Sequence record: PX670417.1
DNA: 64,000 nucleotides
Reading direction: 5' to 3' (one strand)
From: a phage
How positions within the stretch are numbered: position 1 is the stretch's first letter; each line of letters opens with the position of its first letter. The notes under the pieces are model-generated. The model saw only the letters and a list, made by a program, of their open reading frames with translations. It was not told the DNA's origin and searched no databases. A program made the translations under genes and the position numbers. Shown here piece after piece: positions 983 to 13,122 of the stretch.

Positions 983-1005
983 AAAAAAGCCCCATATAAA
1001 GGGGC
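983..1005 (-). terminator. Intrinsic terminator closing the leftward early operon
   Basis: Minus-strand hairpin GCCCC-TTTATAT-GGGGC followed by TTTTTT; a second GGGGCT-AAATA-AGCCCC hairpin lies at about 1019-1034, just after the stop of ORF 1045-1293. Confidence 0.6.
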
Positions 1006-1044
1006 TGTAAAGGTATCTGGGGCTATTTAGCCCCGCTGCGTCGA

Positions 1045-1293
1045 TTAGTTATAATCTTGTTTGTTGTAGTACAGGGAGACGATTTTTTCTCCCCAATAGT
1101 GATATGAATAGCCCTCTTTGAGAACTTCCTGTTTTGTTTCTTTCCAGAACTCATCTGAAGGATTATAGTCTTTGATGGTCTGACTGATAAGAGCTTTCAC
1201 CATTTCAAAGGCGTTATCAGTACCCACAAGGTCGAATTTAACATCCAGAGAGTAGAAGCCAAATTCGTTAACAGTTGCGCGGATAGTTGCCAT
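1045..1293 (-). CDS. Hypothetical early protein (82 aa)
   Basis: ORF preceded by conserved cassette with RBS GGAGA. Confidence 0.55.
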   Translation of the reverse strand: MATIRATVNEFGFYSLDVKFDLVGTDNAFEMVKALISQTIKDYNPSDEFWKETKQEVLKEGYSYHYWGEKIVSLYYNKQDYN

Positions 1294-1358
1294 TTTTGAA
1301 TCTCCTAGTTTAAGGACTTTACTTAGTGGGGAGGTTATCCCTCCCGTTGATTAGTAAT
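1294..1358 (-). promoter_or_regulatory. Intergenic stem-loop + RBS cassette, class A (GGGAGG-TTATC-CCTCCC hairpin about 1328-1345, then ...AAACTAGGAGATTCAAAAATG)
   Basis: Near-identical cassette recurs upstream of at least 6 early ORFs. Confidence 0.65.
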
Positions 1359-1622
1359 TTACTGCATGTTGGCGTATGTTGCAAGCCTTTTTTCGTTGTA
1401 TTTTGTAAGAATCTCACAAGATAAAACATCGTAATTTGTAACAGCGTTGCTTTTATCAAGGTCAAAGAATCCAAACGTTTTACCATCTTTGAATCCGACA
1501 ACTTCGTAAGACTCTTTGATGATTTCACCATTGAACAAATCACTTTCGATGCGGTGAATTAATGCTACGTTTTCTTTGTCGGTTGCAATTTGTAAAAGTG
1601 TGGTTAATTCTACGTTTTCCAT
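1359..1622 (-). CDS. Hypothetical early protein (87 aa; start moved to internal ATG that follows the conserved RBS)
   Basis: Track ORF 1359-1667; the class A hairpin lies inside the 5' extension, so the ATG at 1622 after CTAGGAG is the likely start. Confidence 0.5.
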   Translation of the reverse strand: MENVELTTLLQIATDKENVALIHRIESDLFNGEIIKESYEVVGFKDGKTFGFFDLDKSNAVTNYDVLSCEILTKYNEKRLATYANMQ

Positions 1623-1687
1623 CTTGATAACTCCTAGTTTAAGGATTTTGTTTAGTAGGGAGGTCATCCCTCCCGTTGATTAGTAAT
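1623..1687 (-). promoter_or_regulatory. Stem-loop + RBS cassette, class A variant (GGGAGG-TCATC-CCTCCC, about 1658-1674)
   Basis: Conserved hairpin and CTAGGAG RBS. Confidence 0.6.
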
Positions 1688-2218
1688 TTACAGATTTTTG
1701 ATTGTCTCGTCAATATCTTTTTCAATATCTTTTAAAGTTTTTTCTAAGTTCTTGATATTGAATGATAATCCTTCACCGAGAGTCTTAGAGTAACCGCTAG
1801 GGCGTAAGTCATGCAGTTCGATTTCTTCCACATTGGATAAGTTGACCATCCCACCATTTGCAGCATAGGCTATTGACACAGTATTTTCAGGTGCGTTGTA
1901 AAACTTGTTTAAGGACTTGATAGAACGTTCATAAGCCATTTTATAACTGTTTAAAAGGTTTTTAACGTGGTTGTGAACGTTTTTACACTCATCTAAGTAA
2001 ATCTCTAAGAATAGCGGTAATAACTCTGCTACAGCTTGCATAAAATGAGAGACTACAACGGTTGCAACATTACGGCGATGAATGTAATAAGCCCCGTTTT
2101 CTGATTTGGTGATGGTTGCAAAGTGTACACCATTGCAACGAAATTCATAGGTGTCTTTAACAGGCTTTGACATTACATGGATTGAGCGAATGTAGTTGAT
2201 AGCTTGAAATTTGTTCAT
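1688..2218 (-). CDS. Hypothetical early protein (176 aa)
   Basis: ORF preceded by class A cassette. Confidence 0.6.
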   Translation of the reverse strand: MNKFQAINYIRSIHVMSKPVKDTYEFRCNGVHFATITKSENGAYYIHRRNVATVVVSHFMQAVAELLPLFLEIYLDECKNVHNHVKNLLNSYKMAYERSIKSLNKFYNAPENTVSIAYAANGGMVNLSNVEEIELHDLRPSGYSKTLGEGLSFNIKNLEKTLKDIEKDIDETIKNL

Positions 2219-2290
2219 TTTTGAATCTCCTAGTTTAAGGACTTTACTTAGTGGGGAGGTTATCCCTCCCGTTGATTAGTAATTTACTTG
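2219..2290 (-). promoter_or_regulatory. Stem-loop + RBS cassette, class A (hairpin about 2254-2270)
   Basis: Conserved hairpin and RBS. Confidence 0.65.
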
Positions 2291-2438
2291 TTTTGATAGC
2301 TGATTGCAAGCAATTTTTTAAGTTTATCTATAAAGAATCTTTTAAGTTAATCCCTTTTAGATAAATCCCCTCGAACAAAGTTACCAATGTCAAGAGGGAT
2401 TGTCAACACTTTTTTAAAAGTTTTTTGTAAGTTCTTGA

Positions 2439-2780
2439 TTAACTGATGAATATTTTTTCAGGTTTTACATAGTTCATCTTTTGGCCTTTGAGCAAATCAT
2501 CCCAGATTAAAGCGGCGATATGAGAATAACCGGATTCACGTAATAGCCTCATTGTTTTACTTCTAGTTTCGAATCTGGTTGCGTAGTATTCACTATTCAA
2601 GGCCGTTTTATTCCCTTCCTTGTCTACATGAATAATCTGCATTACTTGAAAGGGGCTGATATCCTCGCCTTTGTTCCATTGCTCAAAGTATTTTAGGCAC
2701 TGCATAGGTGACATCTTGTCACTTACTTGAGTTGACCAAGATGAGCCAGCTTTATCGGTAATTACGGTTACATAAGCCAT
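2439..2780 (-). CDS. Hypothetical early protein (113 aa)
   Basis: ORF preceded by class A cassette; followed by about 150 nt noncoding carrying two TTGACA boxes on the minus strand (about 2370-2400). Confidence 0.6.
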   Translation of the reverse strand: MAYVTVITDKAGSSWSTQVSDKMSPMQCLKYFEQWNKGEDISPFQVMQIIHVDKEGNKTALNSEYYATRFETRSKTMRLLRESGYSHIAALIWDDLLKGQKMNYVKPEKIFIS

Positions 2781-2868
2781 TTTTGAATCTCCTAGTTTAA
2801 GGATTTTACTTAGTGGGGAGGTTATCCCTCCCGTTGATTGACAATTTACAGACTTTTATCAGGCTTGT
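2781..2868 (-). promoter_or_regulatory. Stem-loop + RBS cassette, class A (hairpin about 2816-2832)
   Basis: Conserved hairpin and RBS. Confidence 0.65.
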
Positions 2869-3102
2869 CTAGTCTTTTTCAATGATAATTTCATATTGAC
2901 CATCAACGCTGTCAAAATAAACGCCGTCGCTGTCTTCTGTCTTAAAATAACACTGAATGTCATCACTGGCGGGGTAGTCTTGTCTTGCTATCTGACAGAC
3001 CTGAACGGCATTTTCTTTACTTCCTGTAAACTCCTCAAGCCCTTTAAAATCACATGAATGACTGTTACAAATAGAAAGGATGAGATAAACAGTTGTAAGC
3101 AT
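2869..3102 (-). CDS. Hypothetical small protein with hydrophobic N-terminus (77 aa; possible signal peptide)
   Basis: N-terminus MLTTVYLILSICNSHS is hydrophobic. Confidence 0.5.
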   Translation of the reverse strand: MLTTVYLILSICNSHSCDFKGLEEFTGSKENAVQVCQIARQDYPASDDIQCYFKTEDSDGVYFDSVDGQYEIIIEKD

Positions 3103-3168
3103 GATTTAAGCCTCTTAAAAGCCCCTTACAGGGGCTGAATAGTGTTTATAAGGTGATTGTATAGGTTT
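3103..3168 (-). promoter_or_regulatory. Intergenic hairpin GCCCC-TGTAA-GGGGC (about 3121-3135) followed by TTTT on the minus strand
   Basis: GC stem plus short T-run; terminator-like. Confidence 0.45.
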
Positions 3169-3711
3169 TCAGAAAAAGCTCTTTAAATCTCTTTCTATGA
3201 TGTTTCCCGTCAGTGTGTCCATGATGTCACAAAAAACTTGAATACTATCGGACTGTTGAACGCTTTTAGCGAGAAGTTCCAGAGACTCGTCAATATAGCT
3301 TAAATTCGGGTTATCTAGTGAAGGCAGACAAAATGGTGAAAACATAGCATTAAATTCAGTGGTGTAAACCTTTTTAATCCAGTTTAAATCGAAATATTCT
3401 GTAAAACTTGCCACGCCAGACATATTATCACAAGAATAATCATCGTTTAACTCATCTTCTGGAATATCAAGTTCTAAGATAACAATATTTTGGGTTTTCA
3501 TCTGGAAAGCTGCGGTGATAGCGGCATTGCCCAGAGCTTGCTGGATACCTTCAGAGATTATCTCTTCCTCATCGTCGCCATAGATTTTATTTTCTGGATA
3601 AACGTAAAAATTCCCATCCATATCCGAACAATTCCATGCACCTGATGGCTTATCACCGTTATTAATCAGGTTGATAAAATTTTCTTGAGTAGTACCGTGA
3701 AAGCATTTCAT
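3169..3711 (-). CDS. Hypothetical acidic early protein (180 aa) with N-terminal FHGT motif
   Basis: MKCFHGTTQ... then YVY and acidic stretches; motif-level only. Confidence 0.55.
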   Translation of the reverse strand: MKCFHGTTQENFINLINNGDKPSGAWNCSDMDGNFYVYPENKIYGDDEEEIISEGIQQALGNAAITAAFQMKTQNIVILELDIPEDELNDDYSCDNMSGVASFTEYFDLNWIKKVYTTEFNAMFSPFCLPSLDNPNLSYIDESLELLAKSVQQSDSIQVFCDIMDTLTGNIIERDLKSFF

Positions 3712-3803
3712 TTTTGAATCTCCTAGTTTAAGGACTTGATTTAGTGGTAAAGCTCTTTATCTGGGGCTTAAGATATCAACTTTTAAGCCCCTTGTAAAGT
3801 ACT
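3712..3803 (-). promoter_or_regulatory. Stem-loop + RBS cassette, class B (GGGGCTTAA-11 nt loop-TTAAGCCCC, about 3763-3791)
   Basis: Class B cassette recurs at 6187-6281 and 7010-7097. Confidence 0.65.
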
Positions 3804-4007
3804 TTATCGGTTATTTTTGATAACTTTTAAAACTGCGCGGTATCCTAAGCAATAAGAATCACCGAAGAGCGACCGACCCATGAATGAATCCTCTTTGATA
3901 TCCTTTGCAGTGACAGTCTTTTCTACGCCGTTAAAAAGAACTATATCGCCAACTTTGATATCTTTGATATGAGTAGTTTCAATGTTTAAACCGTTGATAA
4001 TAGCCAT
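3804..4007 (-). CDS. Hypothetical small protein (67 aa)
   Basis: ORF preceded by class A cassette. Confidence 0.5.
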   Translation of the reverse strand: MAIINGLNIETTHIKDIKVGDIVLFNGVEKTVTAKDIKEDSFMGRSLFGDSYCLGYRAVLKVIKNNR

Positions 4008-4107
4008 TCTTGAATCTCCTAGTTTAAGGACTTTACTTAGTGGGGAGGTTATCCCTCCCGTTGATTAGTAATTTACTTGTTTTAAAAATCAATGTCAACA
4101 AAATTTT
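4008..4107 (-). promoter_or_regulatory. Stem-loop + RBS cassette, class A (hairpin about 4043-4059)
   Basis: Conserved hairpin and RBS. Confidence 0.65.
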
Positions 4108-4512
4108 TTAGAGTTCTGCATAAATTGCATCGCAGATACCACGAAAATCATGATTTGTCAAATTACGTTGTAACCAAGTGGCGAAAAAGTCAGCGATTGC
4201 AAAGTTAGCGTCATACTCGACAGATAGCCACACTTTAACAGCAAACCGAAACATTTTCAAATCAAGCTCTTTATTCATTACCTTAGATTTGCCTAACATG
4301 TCGGTCATTTCATATTGTGCACCGTCTAGCGTGATACCTGCTGCAACGTCAGCCAATGAGTTTTTTACGTTTTCAACGTCTAAGATAACGCTTTGAATCT
4401 TCCCAATAATGTTGTGCAATGTTTCGTCCGGTGCTGATGACGTAATAACATTAATCCGGTTAACGGTTAAACGTGCTTTTAAGATTGATAGCTCGCGATT
4501 ATTAATAGCCAT
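4108..4512 (-). CDS. Hypothetical early protein (134 aa; start moved to ATG after conserved RBS)
   Basis: The track's MENLKMAI N-terminus is a translation of the cassette; GGAGAACTTAAAA-ATG fixes the start at 4512. Confidence 0.55.
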   Translation of the reverse strand: MAINNRELSILKARLTVNRINVITSSAPDETLHNIIGKIQSVILDVENVKNSLADVAAGITLDGAQYEMTDMLGKSKVMNKELDLKMFRFAVKVWLSVEYDANFAIADFFATWLQRNLTNHDFRGICDAIYAEL

Positions 4513-4598
4513 TTTTAAGTTCTCCAATTTAGGATTTAGTGGTAAAGCTCTTTATCTGGGGCTTACTTTATCGAACTATAAGCCCCTTGTAAAGTACT
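4513..4598 (-). promoter_or_regulatory. Stem-loop + RBS cassette, class B2 (GGGGCTTA-13 nt loop-TAAGCCCC, about 4558-4586); about 100 nt identical to 6540-6628
   Basis: Exact duplicate of the cassette at 6540-6628 including the first codons. Confidence 0.7.
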
Positions 4599-4871
4599 TT
4601 ATACTAAATGCAGCTTTTTGCCTTTTACCATGATGTAACTTGTTGCGCTATTGCTATGCACATCTTGATAAATTCTGCGCAAACGGCCTTCGTAGTATAC
4701 TTTCCAACTGGTTGGAATCTTTTTCCCGTACCCTGTAGCAGTTTTTTGGAGTCCTGCAAGTTGCCAATCTAAGATATGTTGTTCGGCTTGTAAATCCTCG
4801 AAGTGCATTACACCGTTCACATAGTGGCGCAAAGTTACATTTAGAGTACGACCGTTGTTAGTAGTATACAT
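4599..4871 (-). CDS. Hypothetical early protein (90 aa)
   Basis: ORF preceded by class A cassette. Confidence 0.55.
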   Translation of the reverse strand: MYTTNNGRTLNVTLRHYVNGVMHFEDLQAEQHILDWQLAGLQKTATGYGKKIPTSWKVYYEGRLRRIYQDVHSNSATSYIMVKGKKLHLV

Positions 4872-4958
4872 TTTCTAATCTCCTAGTTTAAGGACTTTAC
4901 TTAGTGGGGAGGTTATCCCTCCCGTTGATTAGTAATTTACTTGCTTTAAAAACCAAAA
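4872..4958 (-). promoter_or_regulatory. Stem-loop + RBS cassette, class A (hairpin about 4907-4923)
   Basis: Conserved hairpin and RBS. Confidence 0.65.
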
Positions 4959-5291
4959 TCAAGAGGAATTTTTTCGTTTGTTCAGTTCTTGGACAATTAC
5001 AGCGTAATAATCTTTTAAGTCACTGATATTTAAAGCATTTATCAGGGAGTTATAATCATCAACCAACTGAAAATCATCTTTTAAGATATCACTTATCTGA
5101 TAGGTTTTCGCTTTGAATCTGAAGCTCATTTCTAGCCGCTTTATTTGCTCATCACTTAAACGCTCCAGAAAGCTCATTACAAGGCTATTATTGACCTGTT
5201 GCGTGATTGCCTTACTTGCCAGATTGTAGGCGCTGTAAGCCTTATAAAGTGCTATAATGGCGATGATTGCAGTGATGCCCATCATTAGCAT
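4959..5291 (-). CDS. Hypothetical membrane protein (110 aa; N-terminal TM helix)
   Basis: MLMMGITAIIAIIALYKAY hydrophobic segment; overlaps upstream gene by 7 nt. Confidence 0.5.
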   Translation of the reverse strand: MLMMGITAIIAIIALYKAYSAYNLASKAITQQVNNSLVMSFLERLSDEQIKRLEMSFRFKAKTYQISDILKDDFQLVDDYNSLINALNISDLKDYYAVIVQELNKRKNSS

Positions 5292-5581
5292 GGTGTTACC
5301 TCTCTGCGTGATACTTTACCATTTACAGTTATCTCATAAGCTTCTAATAAATCACTTTCAGATTTAACAGGACTTTTAAAAGTATCATCATAAACATTAA
5401 TTTGCAATACAGGCTTTTTATACTCCCTGCAACTATTCCATAAGCAAATTACTACGCGACGGCCTTTTATTTTGCCGTGTAACCATTCCATAACATCATG
5501 ACTATTTCTTGATGTCTCGATAAAATCAATTTTATTGAGTAATTTGCTTAGATTTTCACGCACTTGATTTGATAATTTCAT
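5285..5581 (-). CDS. Hypothetical early protein (98 aa)
   Basis: ORF preceded by class B-like cassette. Confidence 0.5.
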   Translation of the reverse strand: MKLSNQVRENLSKLLNKIDFIETSRNSHDVMEWLHGKIKGRRVVICLWNSCREYKKPVLQINVYDDTFKSPVKSESDLLEAYEITVNGKVSRREVTPC

Positions 5582-5673
5582 TTTTGAATCTCCTAGTTTA
5601 AGGGCTTTATTTGATAAATCTCTTTATCTGGGGCTATCCTACCAGCTTGTTAGCCCCGTGTAAAGAAATCTAT
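5582..5673 (-). promoter_or_regulatory. Stem-loop + RBS cassette, class B variant (GGGGCTA-14 nt loop-TAGCCCC, about 5630-5657)
   Basis: Conserved RBS TAGGAGATTCAAAAATG and related hairpin. Confidence 0.6.
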
Positions 5674-6186
5674 TTAGTTCTTAAAGATATTCATCACTGA
5701 ATCTTTTAATGCTTCCAAGCGTTCTAATACTTCAGATTCTGCGTCTGCGTTGTTCACCTCTTCTTTTAGTCTATCCTCTAAATCATCGCCGTCACGATAG
5801 CACCAATCGAAAGCGTAACCAAGATAAAAACTTTCTAAAACCGTGCTACCGTTTGCATCCACAACTTTCGCGGCAAGGCTATACTCTGAAGCCTCTAAAT
5901 CTCTTTCTAGTTCTTTCTGTAAGCTTGTGTAAGCCTCTTTCGATGGATTCTCACGGCCTTGTTTTGCATAGTCACTTGAAAGCTGCTTAAGGCTGTAATG
6001 CAAAGGGATTGCATATTTAAACTCATTACGCTGACAGTTGGTGTTTTTAATAGTTACACCGCCTTGATGGTCATCTGTAAACTCCCAATTATCCATATTA
6101 TGGCTTGCTTCGTAGCAATTAACAGCCTCATAAATGATGGAAAATTTTTCTTTTACAACTTCAAAGGTAGCGTCTACAGTTTTCAT
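5674..6186 (-). CDS. Hypothetical acidic early protein (170 aa)
   Basis: Asp/Glu-rich ORF preceded by class B cassette. Confidence 0.55.
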   Translation of the reverse strand: MKTVDATFEVVKEKFSIIYEAVNCYEASHNMDNWEFTDDHQGGVTIKNTNCQRNEFKYAIPLHYSLKQLSSDYAKQGRENPSKEAYTSLQKELERDLEASEYSLAAKVVDANGSTVLESFYLGYAFDWCYRDGDDLEDRLKEEVNNADAESEVLERLEALKDSVMNIFKN

Positions 6187-6281
6187 TTTTGAATCTCCTA
6201 GTTTAAGGACTTGATTTAGTGGTAAAGCTCTTTATCTGGGGCTTAAGATATCAACTTTTAAGCCCCTTGTAAAGTACTTTA
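6187..6281 (-). promoter_or_regulatory. Stem-loop + RBS cassette, class B (hairpin about 6238-6266)
   Basis: Conserved hairpin and RBS. Confidence 0.65.
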
Positions 6282-6539
6282 TCAGATTAAATTGCCAGTT
6301 AATGATAAGTGCATTTTATAGCCTTTTTTGGTAAAAACGTTCACTTTACCGAGTGATTTTACACCTTTAAAAAGGTTGTTTGAACTGCGTTTTAAGGTTA
6401 GTTGCTTATCAGCTTTCACGCCCCACCTTACAGCAGTTTGTTTTCCGTTGTCAACCACTTTTCCGCATAACTTTTTAGCCATAACGCGAGCGTCATCACG
6501 AGTCTTTGCAGTAATTACAACGTTTTTGATAATAGCCAT
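6282..6539 (-). CDS. Hypothetical basic early protein (85 aa; start moved to ATG after conserved RBS)
   Basis: Same cassette-derived MENLKMAI artefact as ORF 4108-4527. Confidence 0.5.
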   Translation of the reverse strand: MAIIKNVVITAKTRDDARVMAKKLCGKVVDNGKQTAVRWGVKADKQLTLKRSSNNLFKGVKSLGKVNVFTKKGYKMHLSLTGNLI

Positions 6540-6628
6540 TTTTAAGTTCTCCAATTTAGGATTTAGTGGTAAAGCTCTTTATCTGGGGCTTACTTTATCG
6601 AACTATAAGCCCCTTGTAAAGTACTTTA
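6540..6628 (-). promoter_or_regulatory. Stem-loop + RBS cassette, class B2 (hairpin about 6585-6613); duplicate of 4513-4598
   Basis: About 100 nt identity with the 4.5 kb copy. Confidence 0.7.
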
Positions 6629-7009
6629 TTAGTTAATTTTGAAAATTGTCACATAACCATCGCTCCCGATGATTTGTGATACCCCAGCTTTTTCTACTTG
6701 ATAGCCCATATTTTCAAGATGGTAAACAGCATCATCGTAACCATATGCGCCACCCTGATAACGTCGCTTATCACATTTTATCAGGTTTTTACCGCGTCCA
6801 GCAAGTGCATTCAGTACGGCTTTTTCACTTGATAGTGTACCATCTATCATGGTTGCCGTGTAATGGTTGATTTTATTCCCATTAATATCATACTTAAAAT
6901 TGAATGCGTGAACAATAATCAATTTACCGTTAAATTTTTCATCAAGTGACTTCTCCAGTGCGTTGCGGAAGTTGTCTTTATTGATGAATTTCGGTGCACG
7001 ATAAGCCAT
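6629..7009 (-). CDS. Hypothetical early protein (126 aa)
   Basis: ORF preceded by class B cassette. Confidence 0.55.
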   Translation of the reverse strand: MAYRAPKFINKDNFRNALEKSLDEKFNGKLIIVHAFNFKYDINGNKINHYTATMIDGTLSSEKAVLNALAGRGKNLIKCDKRRYQGGAYGYDDAVYHLENMGYQVEKAGVSQIIGSDGYVTIFKIN

Positions 7010-7097
7010 TTTAGAATCTCCTAGTTTAAGGTAAGTTAGTAAAGCTCTTTATCTGGGGCTTAAGATATCAGCTTTTAAGCCCCTTGTAAAGTACTTT
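7010..7097 (-). promoter_or_regulatory. Stem-loop + RBS cassette, class B (hairpin about 7055-7083)
   Basis: Conserved hairpin and RBS. Confidence 0.65.
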
Positions 7098-7304
7098 TTA
7101 TATATCGTAATAGTAAACCGCTGACTGTTTTATATGTCGCTTTGTATTCTTTGTTAGGTAGCAATTAGAGTTAATTGCCGTTTCTACATAGTTGCAATAA
7201 TCAGCTTCTGATATTCTACGCCATGCGCCGCACACTTGCATATAAAAACGTTTTGCCTTTGTGTTAACGTTGGTTGTAACCATCAATTCGCGACTGTACA
7301 TCAT
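7098..7304 (-). CDS. Hypothetical early protein (68 aa); first gene of the leftward early operon
   Basis: RBS GGAGA 8 nt upstream; lies immediately downstream of the candidate early promoter. Confidence 0.45.
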   Translation of the reverse strand: MMYSRELMVTTNVNTKAKRFYMQVCGAWRRISEADYCNYVETAINSNCYLTKNTKRHIKQSAVYYYDI

Positions 7305-7344
7305 TTTGGATTCTCCAGTTTAGGAAGTGGGCTTGCTTGCCCGT

Positions 7345-7385
7345 CTGATGCAAATATTAGATAACCATACTCAAAGAGTCAATAG
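7345..7385 (-). promoter_or_regulatory. Candidate sigma70-type early promoter: TTGACT (7380-7375) - 17 nt - TAATAT (7357-7352) on the minus strand
   Basis: Near-consensus -35/-10 with 17-nt spacer, correctly oriented for the early ORF array; a short GGGC/GCCC hairpin (about 7327-7340) sits in the 5' UTR. Confidence 0.55.
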
Positions 7386-7544: not shown

Positions 7545-7770
7545 CACCTGCACCCACCTACCTGCACAATTCTAAAATGATTTTTCTTGCCCGACCTGAT
7601 TTTTCTCTGCACGTTTTGAAAATGAAAAAGCTCTTTGGAGATTACCTGCACAGTTTGAAAATGAATTTTCTCTTTGGAGTTCAAAATTCTCTCTACAGAT
7701 TTCTCTACAGAACTCTACCTGCACAATTCTAAAATGAAAAAGCCCTCCTTACCTGAAAATTTACCAGATA
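7545..7770. repeat. Imperfect direct repeats (4 copies of about ACCTGCACA(A/G)TT(C/T)(T/G)AAAATGA, including a tandem unit of about 39 bp) upstream of the early promoter
   Basis: Copies at about 7559-7580, 7605-7630, 7642-7669 and 7715-7742; CTCTTTGGAG also duplicated. Confidence 0.6.
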
Positions 7771-7809
7771 AGAAAGGCTTAGTCTATTGTGAATATTCTA
7801 CAGAGTTTC

Positions 7810-11945: not shown

Positions 11946-13055
11946 TTAGATTTCACGTTTACGTTGAGAGATGAGTTCACCAGCAGTGCCAACGATGACA
12001 TGCAAAGCTTCAGTCTTACCATCCCATGCTTTCAGCACTTTACGTTGATTATCAACGATTGCTGTAACTTCATAACGGGATGAACGCATCTTCATATCGT
12101 TGTAATCAGTCGGAACAGCTACAACATCTCGTGGATGGACACGAACCTTCAGGATTGTATCACCTGAGAAGCAACGAACGTAATCCCAAGCACCAACATG
12201 AAGACCTTGAGAACAAGTTACGTTACGGTTATTATCAACCATCCAACGTGGCATTTCTACAATGTTACCCAAATCATTAGGTACTTTGTAGGTGCGGGAA
12301 TCAACCAGCTTGCCTTCATGAGTAGAGACTTTCTTCCAGCCAATGATGTAGCCTTCTTCATCAATTTCAACATCAAGGTGTGATACGAATCCCCAAAGTT
12401 GTTCTACAGAATCTTTAGATGGGTTTTCCATCAGTTTTTCGAAGAACATTACAAGTCGTTCAAAACCTTTATCACCAGTCTTCATCATGTGGAGAATACG
12501 GTCAACCAGAGTAGAACGCATCTCAACAGCACCGTAGAATAACTTGTCACCTTTGATTGTGATAGCACCCTGAGTGAAGTTTTCGATAGACTTACGAATA
12601 TTCATCAGTTCAAAGGCTTTCTTGAACTCACCTTTCACAACATGAACTACAATATCTTGATAGTTCGGATGAGTAGACTCAACAATTTCAGATTCTGAAC
12701 CGTAAGTCATAATTACAGAGTCACCAGTAATCATGTACTCAATCTTGTCATCTTTCTGCATAGCTTCATGCAGTTTATTTACTGGAGCTTTCTGTACAGA
12801 TTCCTTAACAACCTTTTCAACTGGTTTTCCAGCTTTCTTTTTAACTGATTTAGCAACTTGCTTCAAAGTCTTCGTAGCTGGTTTAGAAGTTGCCTTTTTC
12901 TTACCTTTTAAGGTTGCTTCATGACGCTCTACAGCACGACCAACTGAACGGGTTGAAGTATTGAACTTCTGTGCAATAGCTGTTTTAGTCAGCTTACCTT
13001 CTTTAACCAGTTCGTAGATTTCTGCGTCAATCTGTGCTTTAGTTTTAATAGTCAT
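11946..13055 (-). CDS. rIIB: rIIB-like protein (369 aa)
   Basis: Position immediately downstream of the rIIA-like gene; N-terminal HTH-like segment then Lys-rich linker; assignment by synteny only. Confidence 0.4.
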   Translation of the reverse strand: MTIKTKAQIDAEIYELVKEGKLTKTAIAQKFNTSTRSVGRAVERHEATLKGKKKATSKPATKTLKQVAKSVKKKAGKPVEKVVKESVQKAPVNKLHEAMQKDDKIEYMITGDSVIMTYGSESEIVESTHPNYQDIVVHVVKGEFKKAFELMNIRKSIENFTQGAITIKGDKLFYGAVEMRSTLVDRILHMMKTGDKGFERLVMFFEKLMENPSKDSVEQLWGFVSHLDVEIDEEGYIIGWKKVSTHEGKLVDSRTYKVPNDLGNIVEMPRWMVDNNRNVTCSQGLHVGAWDYVRCFSGDTILKVRVHPRDVVAVPTDYNDMKMRSSRYEVTAIVDNQRKVLKAWDGKTEALHVIVGTAGELISQRKREI

Positions 13056-13106: not shown

Positions 13107-13122
13107 GGGGCTTTGAAGCCCC
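13107..13122 (-). promoter_or_regulatory. GGGGCT-TTGA-AGCCCC hairpin between rIIA and rIIB (identical to the hairpin at 17880-17895)
   Basis: Perfect 6-bp GC stem; weak T-run. Confidence 0.5.

Follow-up and report, generated by a model that had tools for sequence, protein, structure and literature searches.

A block of small genes in a Felix O1-like phage as a probable array of cassette-plus-gene modules

Sequence record PX670417.1 was analysed as a 64,000-nucleotide stretch of phage DNA (the window), whose minus strand carries, between positions 7780 and 982, fifteen small genes with spacers that repeat one another; the question that this locus raises is whether the genes form one operon read from a single promoter, or a set of units expressed separately. 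The source phage is a Felix O1-like myovirus (Ounavirinae, Felixounavirus), and the block is the counterpart of Felix O1 genes 14−23. The answer proposed here is that 982−7780 (−) is probably a plastic early-type region of self-contained modules, each made of a ∼100-nt cassette and a small gene, and not one operon. This reading is built on the anatomy of the cassettes, their conservation, the covariation of base pairs in their hairpins and the structure of the junctions between modules; promoter activity, start sites and the effects of the hairpins on RNA are inferred from these.

Architecture of the cassette array

The array consists of 15 minus-strand open reading frames (ORFs) of 67−180 aa, running from 7304 to 1045 and flanked by intrinsic terminators, in agreement with the first-pass annotation of this DNA, which had counted about 15; nearly all of the items that it listed were present, displaced by at most 1−3 nt. 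There are 12 cassettes of ∼100 nt in two classes, A and B, plus a divergent first one; class A stands before genes 7, 9, 12, 13, 14 and 15, and class B before genes 2, 3, 4, 5, 8 and 10. The spacers that contain a cassette measure 65−100 nt. As for the claim that almost every ORF is preceded by a cassette, it holds for 13 of the 15 genes and fails for gene 6, which overlaps gene 5, and for gene 11, with a 66-nt spacer that is unlike the cassettes.

The repeats are specific to this block. Profiles made with nhmmer from the copies recovered 12 full cassettes, located only at 1291−7115 within the window. The class A hairpin GGGAGGGATAACCTCCCC has 6 copies against 0.01 expected by chance, the class B motif TTTACAnGGGGCT has 6 exact copies on the gene strand, and the ribosome-binding motif TAAACTAGGAGAT has 10 copies at one mismatch or fewer, so that all three repeat types recognized in the first pass were recovered; with up to two mismatches, TAAACTAGGAGAT has 12 matches in the whole window (2.7 expected), a number reached in 0 of 100 shuffles. 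As for the two cassettes first described as identical over about 100 nt, the repeat is exact and has 100 nt (4503−4602 = 6530−6629); it continues for 10 nt (ATGGCTATTA) inside two ORFs that are unrelated. Another exact repeat, 103 nt long (3706−3808 = 6181−6283), had been overlooked.

Regarding the order of the elements, class A has, from 5′ to 3′, an A-tract (e.g., GAAAAAG), a −35 box (TTGACA, TTGCAA, TTGACG, TTGATT or TAGACA), a 17-nt spacer, the −10 box TAAATT and ACTAATCAAC; then follow a G+C hairpin of 6−8 bp, ACTAAnnAAAnTCC, TAAACT(A)GGAG, 7−8 nt, and the ATG. Class B has the order AAAGTACTTTACA-N-GGGGCTTAA...TTAAGCCCC-AGATAAAGAGCTTTAC, followed by the ribosome-binding module common to both classes, which is near-invariant: TCC-TAAACT(A)GGAG, 7−8 nt, ATG. 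Here TTTACA lies 17 nt ahead of a TAnnnT hexamer; this −10 box spans the hairpin loop and 3′ arm, and the −35 box falls within the lower stem and the internal loop.

The features of the block, in the direction of the genes, are the following:

7740..7780 (−): upstream intrinsic terminator, 17-bp stem and T-run; terminator scan; t13 of Felix O1 Table 2 (PMC3185647).
7302..7400 (−): cassette 1, class-A-like, with AT-rich upstream sequence, TTGACT-17-TAATAT (7382−7354), hairpin GGGCAAGCAAGCCC (7342−7329), TAAACTGGAG and the ATG of gene 1.
7098..7304 (−): gene 1, 68 aa, phrog_5293.
7007..7115 (−): class B cassette of gene 2, TTTACA-17-TATCTT under a two-part hairpin; scan, motif, nhmmer.
6629..7009 (−): gene 2, 126 aa.
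6537..6642 (−): class B cassette of gene 3, −10 TAAAGT; exact 100-nt repeat of 4503−4602; nhmmer.
6282..6539 (−): gene 3, 85 aa.
6184..6292 (−): class B cassette of gene 4; exact 103-nt repeat of 3706−3808; nhmmer.
5674..6186 (−): gene 4, 170 aa.
5579..5689 (−): class B cassette of gene 5, variant stem GGGGCTA/TAGCCCC, −10 TAGGAT, compensatory U-A in the lower stem; nhmmer.
5285..5581 (−): gene 5, 98 aa.
4959..5291 (−): gene 6, 110 aa, no cassette; 7-nt overlap with gene 5 (ATG within ...ATGCTAA); its 3′ end contains the A-tract and −35 box of the gene 7 cassette.
4869..4976 (−): class A cassette of gene 7, TTGATT-17-TAAATT, hairpin 4923−4906; motif, nhmmer.
4599..4871 (−): gene 7, 90 aa.
4510..4613 (−): class B cassette of gene 8; nhmmer, exact repeat.
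4108..4512 (−): gene 8, 134 aa; ATG at 4512, not the TTG of the ORF tool.
4005..4113 (−): class A cassette of gene 9, TTGACA-17-TAAATT, hairpin 4059−4042; scan, motif, nhmmer.
3804..4007 (−): gene 9, 67 aa.
3709..3816 (−): class B cassette of gene 10; nhmmer, fold.
3169..3711 (−): gene 10, 180 aa.
3117..3136 (−): non-cassette element before gene 11, hairpin AGCCCCTGTAAGGGGCT then TTTT, weakly terminator-like; a potential terminator in the annotation of phage Barry.
2869..3102 (−): gene 11, 77 aa; its stop TAG lies within the next −35 box (TAGACA).
2778..2887 (−): class A cassette of gene 12, TAGACA-17-TAAATT, hairpin 2832−2815; scan, motif, nhmmer.
2439..2780 (−): gene 12, 113 aa.
2324−2438 (−): extra 115-nt spacer before the gene 13 cassette, with TTGACA-17-TAACTT and the inverted repeat ATCCCTC/GAGGGGAT; a promoter is annotated here in phage AYO145A.
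2216..2323 (−): class A cassette of gene 13, TTGCAA-17-TAAATT, hairpin 2270−2253; motif, nhmmer.
1688..2218 (−): gene 13, 176 aa; its last ∼45 nt contain the A-tract, −35 box and spacer of the next cassette.
1620..1729 (−): class A cassette of gene 14, TTGACG-17-TAAATT, hairpin 1674−1657; the stop TAA of the gene upstream is the first 3 nt of the −10 box; scan, motif, nhmmer.
1359..1622 (−): gene 14, 87 aa; its 3′ end contains the promoter of the gene 15 cassette.
1291..1399 (−): class A cassette of gene 15, TTGCAA-17-TAAATT, hairpin 1345−1328; the upstream stop TAA is again the first three bases of the −10 box; motif, nhmmer.
1045..1293 (−): gene 15, 82 aa.
1034−1019 (−): end of the array, class-B-like hairpin without promoter, GGGGCTAAATAGCCCC-AGATA; sequence, terminator scan.
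1006−982 (−): final intrinsic terminator, AGCCCCTTTATATGGGGCT and TTTTTT, stem 1006−988; scan; t23 of Felix O1 (PMC3185647).

The terminator predicted in the first pass at 983−1005 is the last of these, with its stem at 1006−988 followed by TTTTTT. As for the products, a Pfam search with all 15 proteins gave zero matches, and in a PHROG search 15 of 15 fell into families of unknown function.

Two side observations concern the ribosome-binding module. In fold predictions, the leader UCC-UAAACU-(A)GGAG forms a weak 3−4-bp pairing that could mask the Shine-Dalgarno sequence (e.g., 3716−3737), and TAAACT is kept from Felixounavirus to the Erwinia phages (TTAAACAGGA); this conserved hexamer may be a translational enhancer or a control element. 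The GGGAGG arm of the class A hairpin was considered as a working ribosome site and rejected, given that other class A variants (GGGGC...GCCCC) do not contain GGGAGG.

Promoter signals in the cassettes

The promoter boxes were compared in 70 class A and 78 class B copies collected from 15 genomes, of which 11 belong to Felixounavirus (the window included), three to Mooglevirus and one to Suspvirus. Each of the 67 distinct class A sequences has a −35 box (TTGCAA 25, TTGACA 12, TTGACG 11, TAGACA 10, TTGATT 8, TTGACC 1) and a −10 box (TAAATT 49, TAAAGT 15, TAATAT 3), and the spacer is always 17 nt; in addition, five consecutive positions at about −44 to −40, within the 12 nt that precede the −35 box, are A in 76−99% of the copies, a placement that is taken here to be that of the proximal UP-element subsite. 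In class B, 37 of the 39 distinct cores have a TAnnnT hexamer (TAAGAT, TATCTT, TAAAGT, TAGTAT, TAGGAT and others) exactly 17 nt after TTTACA, and 22 of the 39 have TG at −15/−14. When the class B cores are aligned in the promoter register, the loop "TA" at −12/−11 is invariant and the adjacent loop positions are variable; a pure hairpin model does not demand this invariance, which counts for a promoter.

Selection on the promoter is also suggested where it lies within coding sequence. In genes 6, 13 and 14, whose 3′ ends hold class A promoter elements, third-codon positions are conserved at 96−97% in the last 48 nt versus 86−90% in the gene body, and two control genes had little or no rise at their 3′ end. 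A consensus scan at a threshold of at least 9 of 12 matches detected all six class B promoters of the window, three of class A and that of the first cassette.

The depositors of phage AYO145A labelled a class A site as promoter, the wV8 paper has nothing on promoters, and the paper on avian pathogenic Escherichia coli (APEC) phages only counted them. In Felix O1, reverse transcription PCR (RT-PCR) placed the peak of genes 16, 20, 21 and 22 of the block at 5 min.

From these signals we infer that every cassette has its own sigma70-type promoter, with predicted activity and start sites. The first-pass annotation had recognized one promoter, TTGACT-17-TAATAT on the minus strand; it was found at 7382−7354, and it belongs to the first cassette of the series. 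The one-promoter operon derived from it is not supported, since −35 box, 17-nt spacing and −10 box recur in 67/67 class A and 37/39 class B distinct copies.

Structure and selection of the hairpins

The minimum free energy (MFE) fold of class B has an 11-bp lower stem with one mismatch, a 3 × 3 internal loop (CAN/AGA), a 9-bp upper stem and a loop of 10−11 nt, with an MFE of about −20 kcal/mol and z = −3.8 to −4.8. Pairs were counted with the loop padded with N, given that a plain MAFFT alignment shifted a 1-nt length difference into the 3′ arm; that alignment was used for the promoter register only. Over 38 distinct cores, 98.3% of the cells are paired and 4 pairs have compensatory changes: three in the upper stem (U-A/A-U, A-U/U-A and C-G/U-A/A-U/U-G) and one in the lower stem (G-C 23, U-A 9, A-U 1, G-U 3). 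Double-change cells number 51, versus 13.5 in shuffles, and 0 of 500 shuffles reach 51; controls with the register slid are only 32−58% paired. Finally, in the Erwinia phage phiEa104 (Kolesnikvirus) the otherwise invariant GGGG/CCCC becomes GGTG/CACC, and TTTACA-17-TAGTAT or TTTACA-17-TAATCT is kept.

Class A hairpins vary in sequence (GGGAGG/CCTCCC, GGGGAGGG/CCTTCCCC, GGGGC/GCCCC) and not in position: they have 6−8 bp and always start 10 nt after the −10 box. The GGGCAAGCAAGCCC-type hairpin of cassette 1 occurs also in class A copies of Mooglevirus. Regarding the strand, 64 of 67 class A hairpins fold better as the sense sequence than as the antisense (−13.3, the class A average, versus −9.7 kcal/mol), and the same holds for 20/20 class B cores from Mooglevirus and Suspvirus; this advantage is due to G·U pairs and points to a role at the RNA level. 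Overall, the sequence comparisons suggest that the hairpins are selected structures, probably acting in RNA.

The hairpins were said in the first pass to lack strong T-runs, and the terminator scan indeed lists none at any cassette: it found 7740−7780, 988−1006 and one plus-strand site only. A search of 1−9000 against Rfam at a permissive E-value gave two chance-level matches (E = 0.15 and 0.23), neither at a cassette.

Hairpins of the GGGGCT...AGCCCC type exist also outside the array, at 13107−13122 (−), 50678−50693 (−) and 17880−17895. The one at 13.1 kb sits exactly in the spacer of a promoter (TTGACA-A-GGGGCTTCAAAGCCCC-T-TAGAAT), ahead of a gene that has its start at 13054, and the same promoter-hairpin element is present in phage KMM4 (L010:2303−2379).

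Conservation and gene gain or loss in relatives

The first-pass annotation had left to a comparison with related phages whether the cassettes are conserved and whether genes are exchanged at their boundaries; the comparison was made, and both were found. Class B cores occur at 1960 places in 290 phage records, including 29 Erwinia phages, and class A in 241 phage records; the cassettes are kept across four genera of Ounavirinae. Region 900−7500 aligns in full length with Escherichia phage mio at 92.6% identity, and it matches 256 phage records with identities of roughly 75−97% and a coverage that goes from 2% to 100%, which makes it strongly mosaic.

Most of the limits of the mosaic pieces lie in cassettes. 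In the comparison with ten Felixounavirus relatives, homology stopped within a cassette at 28 of 40 ends; once ends had been merged, the same was true of 16 of 23 distinct breakpoints, the cassettes making up 22.6% of the block (binomial p = 2e-6). Five junctions were read base by base, namely those of OPT-SAL01 (without genes 13−14), LF110P4 (without genes 12−13, and without genes 3−9), LF110P1 (without genes 7−8) and NRG857CP1 (without gene 3), and all five consist of one chimeric cassette with the crossover in shared sequence. The adjacency map of Felixounavirus contains ten distinct novel gene adjacencies, each leaving 65−123 nt, that is one cassette; all ten join cassettes of the same class, versus 30 of the 66 possible pairs by arithmetic. 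Where the two classes alternate along the array, the only losses are of two genes. Joins between classes run through the shared ribosome-binding module, for example where gene 1 is missing, the breakpoints being 7028 and 7340.

Relatives without gene 1, or without large parts of the array, have a cassette ahead of every gene left, and the class of a cassette is mostly tied to the downstream gene family, with few switches. The modular shuffling suggested in the first pass stands in part: gene gain and loss are bounded by cassettes, and the order of the genes is collinear in 15 of 15 genomes, with presence and absence varying; shuffling of gene positions was rejected on this ground.

Some records contain cassettes in unusual settings. 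In phage Barry, a class B cassette and the end of the gene next to it are duplicated in tandem (L002 7614−7878, annotated Repeat_01), and in phage Mordin two class B cores stand in tandem without an intervening gene (L004 ∼11829−11925); both look like footprints of unequal recombination. GenBank GU169904, "Staphylococcus phage SA1" (147 kb), has eight sites with cassettes of Felix O1 type, at ∼90% identity, and it is probably a mixed or mis-assembled record, not a feature of a Staphylococcus phage.

Proposed mechanism

In the modular reading, the host sigma70 RNA polymerase would initiate at each cassette, from a strong promoter. The class A transcript is predicted to start within ATCAAC, with the hairpin 3−5 nt from the 5′ end; with the hairpin 10 nt after the −10 box, it would be at the 5′ end of the mRNA of its own cassette, and it would also lie at the end of any RNA that arrives from the upstream gene. 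For class B, the predicted transcript begins immediately 3′ of the upper stem (after ...GCCCC), at AGAUAAAG, so that it would hold only the 3′ half of the hairpin, with a leader predicted as unstructured; the full class B hairpin would form only in read-through RNA from upstream. Since the position of the hairpin relative to the promoter differs by class, and in the Erwinia phages it is around the −10 box, a role shared by all of them must act on the upstream RNA. Such a role would most likely be that of a 3′ boundary of the upstream message, by attenuation of read-through, by protection of the 3′ end, or by both; a boundary of this kind would insulate neighbouring modules. As for the gain and loss of genes, the cassettes are long near-identical direct repeats, and for this reason homologous recombination between two of the same class would delete or insert a gene together with one cassette, yielding the mosaic of presence and absence in relatives.

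A more daring version concerns class B: the same 59 nt might be a promoter in the DNA and, in RNA that comes from upstream, a hairpin for both processing (of RNase III type or other) and 3′ protection, with initiation and processing giving the same 5′ end (AGAUAAAGAGCUUUAC...), a dual code evolved independently of the cassettes known from T4-type phages (see below); this is considered rather unlikely. If true, each gene would yield one uniform mRNA whatever its neighbours, and this uniformity would permit free addition or removal of gene-plus-cassette units of the same class.

Weighing of the evidence and alternative explanations

Several points weigh against the modular reading. Three of the six class A promoters of the window score just 8/12 against the consensus, the literature searched contained no mapping of transcription start sites or RNA-seq for any Felix O1-like phage, and the RT-PCR of Felix O1 has a peak at 25 min for genes 14, 17, 19 and 23. 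In class B, the −35 box and part of the −10 box are also constrained by the stems, so that their conservation alone cannot tell a promoter role from an RNA role; furthermore, gene conversion can homogenize repeats within a genome, and the covariation counts therefore reflect few independent events. No U-tract follows the hairpins (ACUAAG... follows class A, and AGAUAAAG... class B), hence they are not canonical intrinsic terminators. In addition, class B of Felixounavirus folds equally well on either strand, and any viable deletion would be expected to break in intergenic DNA.

Some of these points feed other explanations. The block could be a single polycistronic early operon, from 7354−7382 to 988−1006, with hairpins as processing or stability sites as in T7 and inactive internal promoters: two good intrinsic terminators bound it, its genes are all on the same strand, read-through is expected from hairpins without U-runs, and the ∼20-bp irregular helix of class B with its internal loop has the general shape of an RNase III substrate. 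This reading is quite improbable, in view of the −35 box, 17-nt spacing and −10 box kept in 67/67 class A and 37/39 class B distinct copies over four genera, the A-tract of class A, the promoter elements kept at synonymous sites inside coding sequence, the invariant loop "TA" of class B, and the cassette found before each remaining gene in relatives that miss gene 1 or much of the array. A narrower proposal, compatible with separate modules and in competition with them only on the role of the hairpin, is that class B is an RNase III site in read-through RNA and not an attenuator; if the internal loop were cut, the upstream RNA would keep a hairpin that protects its 3′ end, and the downstream mRNA would be released with a 5′ end (AGAUAAAG...) equal to that of the primary transcript. 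It agrees with the compensatory pair of the lower stem (G-C 23, U-A 9, A-U 1, G-U 3), the ∼20 bp of total helix with a conserved 3 × 3 internal loop (CAN/AGA), the missing U-tract, and a predicted start (7−8 nt after the −10 box) that falls on the 3′ side of the internal loop. The 6−8-bp stems of class A are instead too short, and RNase III cleavage cannot then be the role common to both classes; moreover, the stem-loop of the analogous cassette of phage RB49 acted as a terminator in a reporter assay. For class B this proposal is a tentative possibility.

As for action in the DNA, the inverted repeats might be operators at which a dimeric regulator of phage or host switches the promoters off, or else cruciforms that tune the promoters or serve as targets for a recombination protein. 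Over the −35 box lies a perfect 10-bp palindrome, AAAGTACTTT, with a near-copy AAAGAGCTTT just after the predicted start, the equal folding of both strands in Felixounavirus class B fits such sites, and a protein that binds GGGG...CCCC was a speculation of the authors who described the T4-type cassettes (PMC2839356). Nevertheless, G·U pairs are frequent (22/38 cores at upper-stem pair 5, 32/38 at lower-stem pair 5) and become A·C mismatches on the opposite strand, the sense strand folds better in 64/67 class A and in 20/20 Mooglevirus and Suspvirus class B copies, and the covarying pair of the lower stem is made by position 4 in the first 10-mer and position 7 in the second, which fits pairing between the two sites and not symmetry within each; a role in DNA is very unlikely. 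Finally, the cassettes could be regulatory only, and the indels that they bound could be surviving deletions that end in intergenic DNA. The cassettes do fill nearly all of the intergenic space, so that any viable deletion ends in or beside one, but the spacers at the junctions are always one cassette long (65−123 nt) and never ragged, the junction cassettes are chimeric with the crossover inside shared sequence, the two cassettes are of the same class in 10/10 adjacencies versus 30/66 possible pairs, losses of an even number of genes (two) are the only ones in the alternating stretch, and Barry and Mordin have tandem cassette duplications that are gene-free. A purely regulatory role is accordingly improbable, and the separate, recombining modules are the preferred reading.

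Comparison with known systems

The closest counterparts are the promoter-early stem-loop (PeSL) cassettes of the T4-type phages RB49 and phi1 (Arbiol, Comeau & Krisch 2010, PMC2839356), later found also in PST/T4 and nt-1/KVP40 (Comeau et al. 2014, PMC4122927). In RB49 and phi1, promoter strength and terminator activity of PeSLs were measured with lacZ fusions, and mini-circles were detected (PMC2839356). The likeness to T4-type promoter/stem-loop cassettes, already proposed in the first-pass annotation, extends to every sequence-level criterion of a PeSL (PMC2839356), the Felix O1-like cassettes being known here from sequence alone: repeated intergenic units of ∼100 nt; an AT-rich upstream part and sigma70-type −35 and −10 boxes; a GGGG...CCCC stem-loop between the boxes, across the −10 box or shortly after it; a 3′ end of the unit formed by a Shine-Dalgarno sequence and the ATG; and location in a plastic region of small ORFans, where close relatives have indels at the units.

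The Felix O1-like cassettes also differ from PeSLs. They belong to another subfamily (Ounavirinae, with genomes of ∼86 kb), their classes number only two or three, are tightly conserved and mostly go with one downstream gene family each, class B adds a covarying lower stem and an internal loop, and a near-invariant translation-initiation module is common to all classes. In BLAST searches with either cassette, no T4-type record was among the matches listed, which were only of Ounavirinae type plus the SA1 record, and no paper tying PeSLs to Felix-like phages was found in the literature searched. Judged by sequence, these cassettes have the same architecture as PeSLs and are an independent sequence family.

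The early region of T7 has promoters A1−A3, five RNase III sites between genes 0.3 and 1.3, and the terminator TE. It resembles the present block in its small one-strand early genes split by conserved irregular hairpins without U-tracts, and in the single strong closing terminator; the succession of upper stem, internal loop and lower stem in class B resembles the T7 sites as well. However, T7 has promoters at the start of the region only, while here promoter signals are in every spacer, and the stems of class A have too few base pairs for RNase III.

Stem-loops at the 5′ terminus, such as that of the ompA leader, stabilize E. coli mRNAs against decay that depends on the 5′ end. The class A hairpin, ∼3−5 nt from the 5′ end at the predicted start, is similar in this respect; in the Erwinia phages the hairpin is around the −10 box, outside the transcript of its own cassette, and capping of the 5′ end cannot then be the shared role. 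As for the lambdoid morons, they are likewise single accessory genes with their own promoter and an element that bounds the transcript; they have no conserved flanking repeats and their insertion is thought to be illegitimate, whereas here the long conserved flanks are the crossover sites (PMC2839356).

Parts of the cassettes had already been noticed in Felix O1-like genomes. The Felix O1 genome paper reported direct repeats of 57 bp and 39 bp with no function given (PMC3185647); the longer one, CTTTACATGGGGCTTAAAAGTCTGTAAAGTAAGCCCCAGATAAAGAGCTTTACCACT, is the core of class B, and the shorter one, TTGACACTGG...TAAATTACACATCAAC, is the promoter of class A. The GenBank record of wV8 labels cassette sequences as DR_2 to DR_9.

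Significance

The Felix O1 genome paper stated as unknown how transcription passes the terminators (PMC3185647), and a promoter for each gene offers an answer to this question of transcription across the block. More generally, the modular reading would extend the PeSL idea, in which the same units express accessory genes and serve as crossover points, beyond the T4 superfamily to an unrelated subfamily of myoviruses. Felix O1-like phages are used in typing, biocontrol and therapy of Salmonella and E. coli, and modules that are independently expressed, dispensable and exchangeable would show where cargo could be put in or genes taken out. With its 15 proteins, likely early and host-directed, the array also offers candidates for screening, and class B would be a compact natural case of promoter and RNA structure in the same bases.

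Flanking and minor features

The terminator at 7740−7780 parts the array from a block with a Macro-domain gene: the gene directly upstream, 7810−8595 (−), encodes a Macro-domain protein (Pfam PF01661, E = 1e-7), called "phosphatase" in the annotation of relatives. Between this terminator and the promoter of the first cassette, 7559−7752 contains three to four direct repeats of ∼30 nt (TACCTGCACAnTTnnAAAATGA...). The motif CCTATACAATC is present at ∼3155, just before the gene 11 hairpin, and again at ∼955, just after the terminal terminator. At the position of the extra spacer 2324−2438, the Mooglevirus genomes have an ORF of ∼46 aa.

At the other end of the block, positions 1−640 are non-coding and dense in TTAACA and CTAACAAG motifs, many of them 11 nt apart (e.g., 473−541), with inverted copies at 548−635. 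The records of several relatives begin near 1−640, and terminal repeats of 608 bp were reported for UAB_Phi87; this segment may be an origin, a packaging region or a terminal-repeat region.

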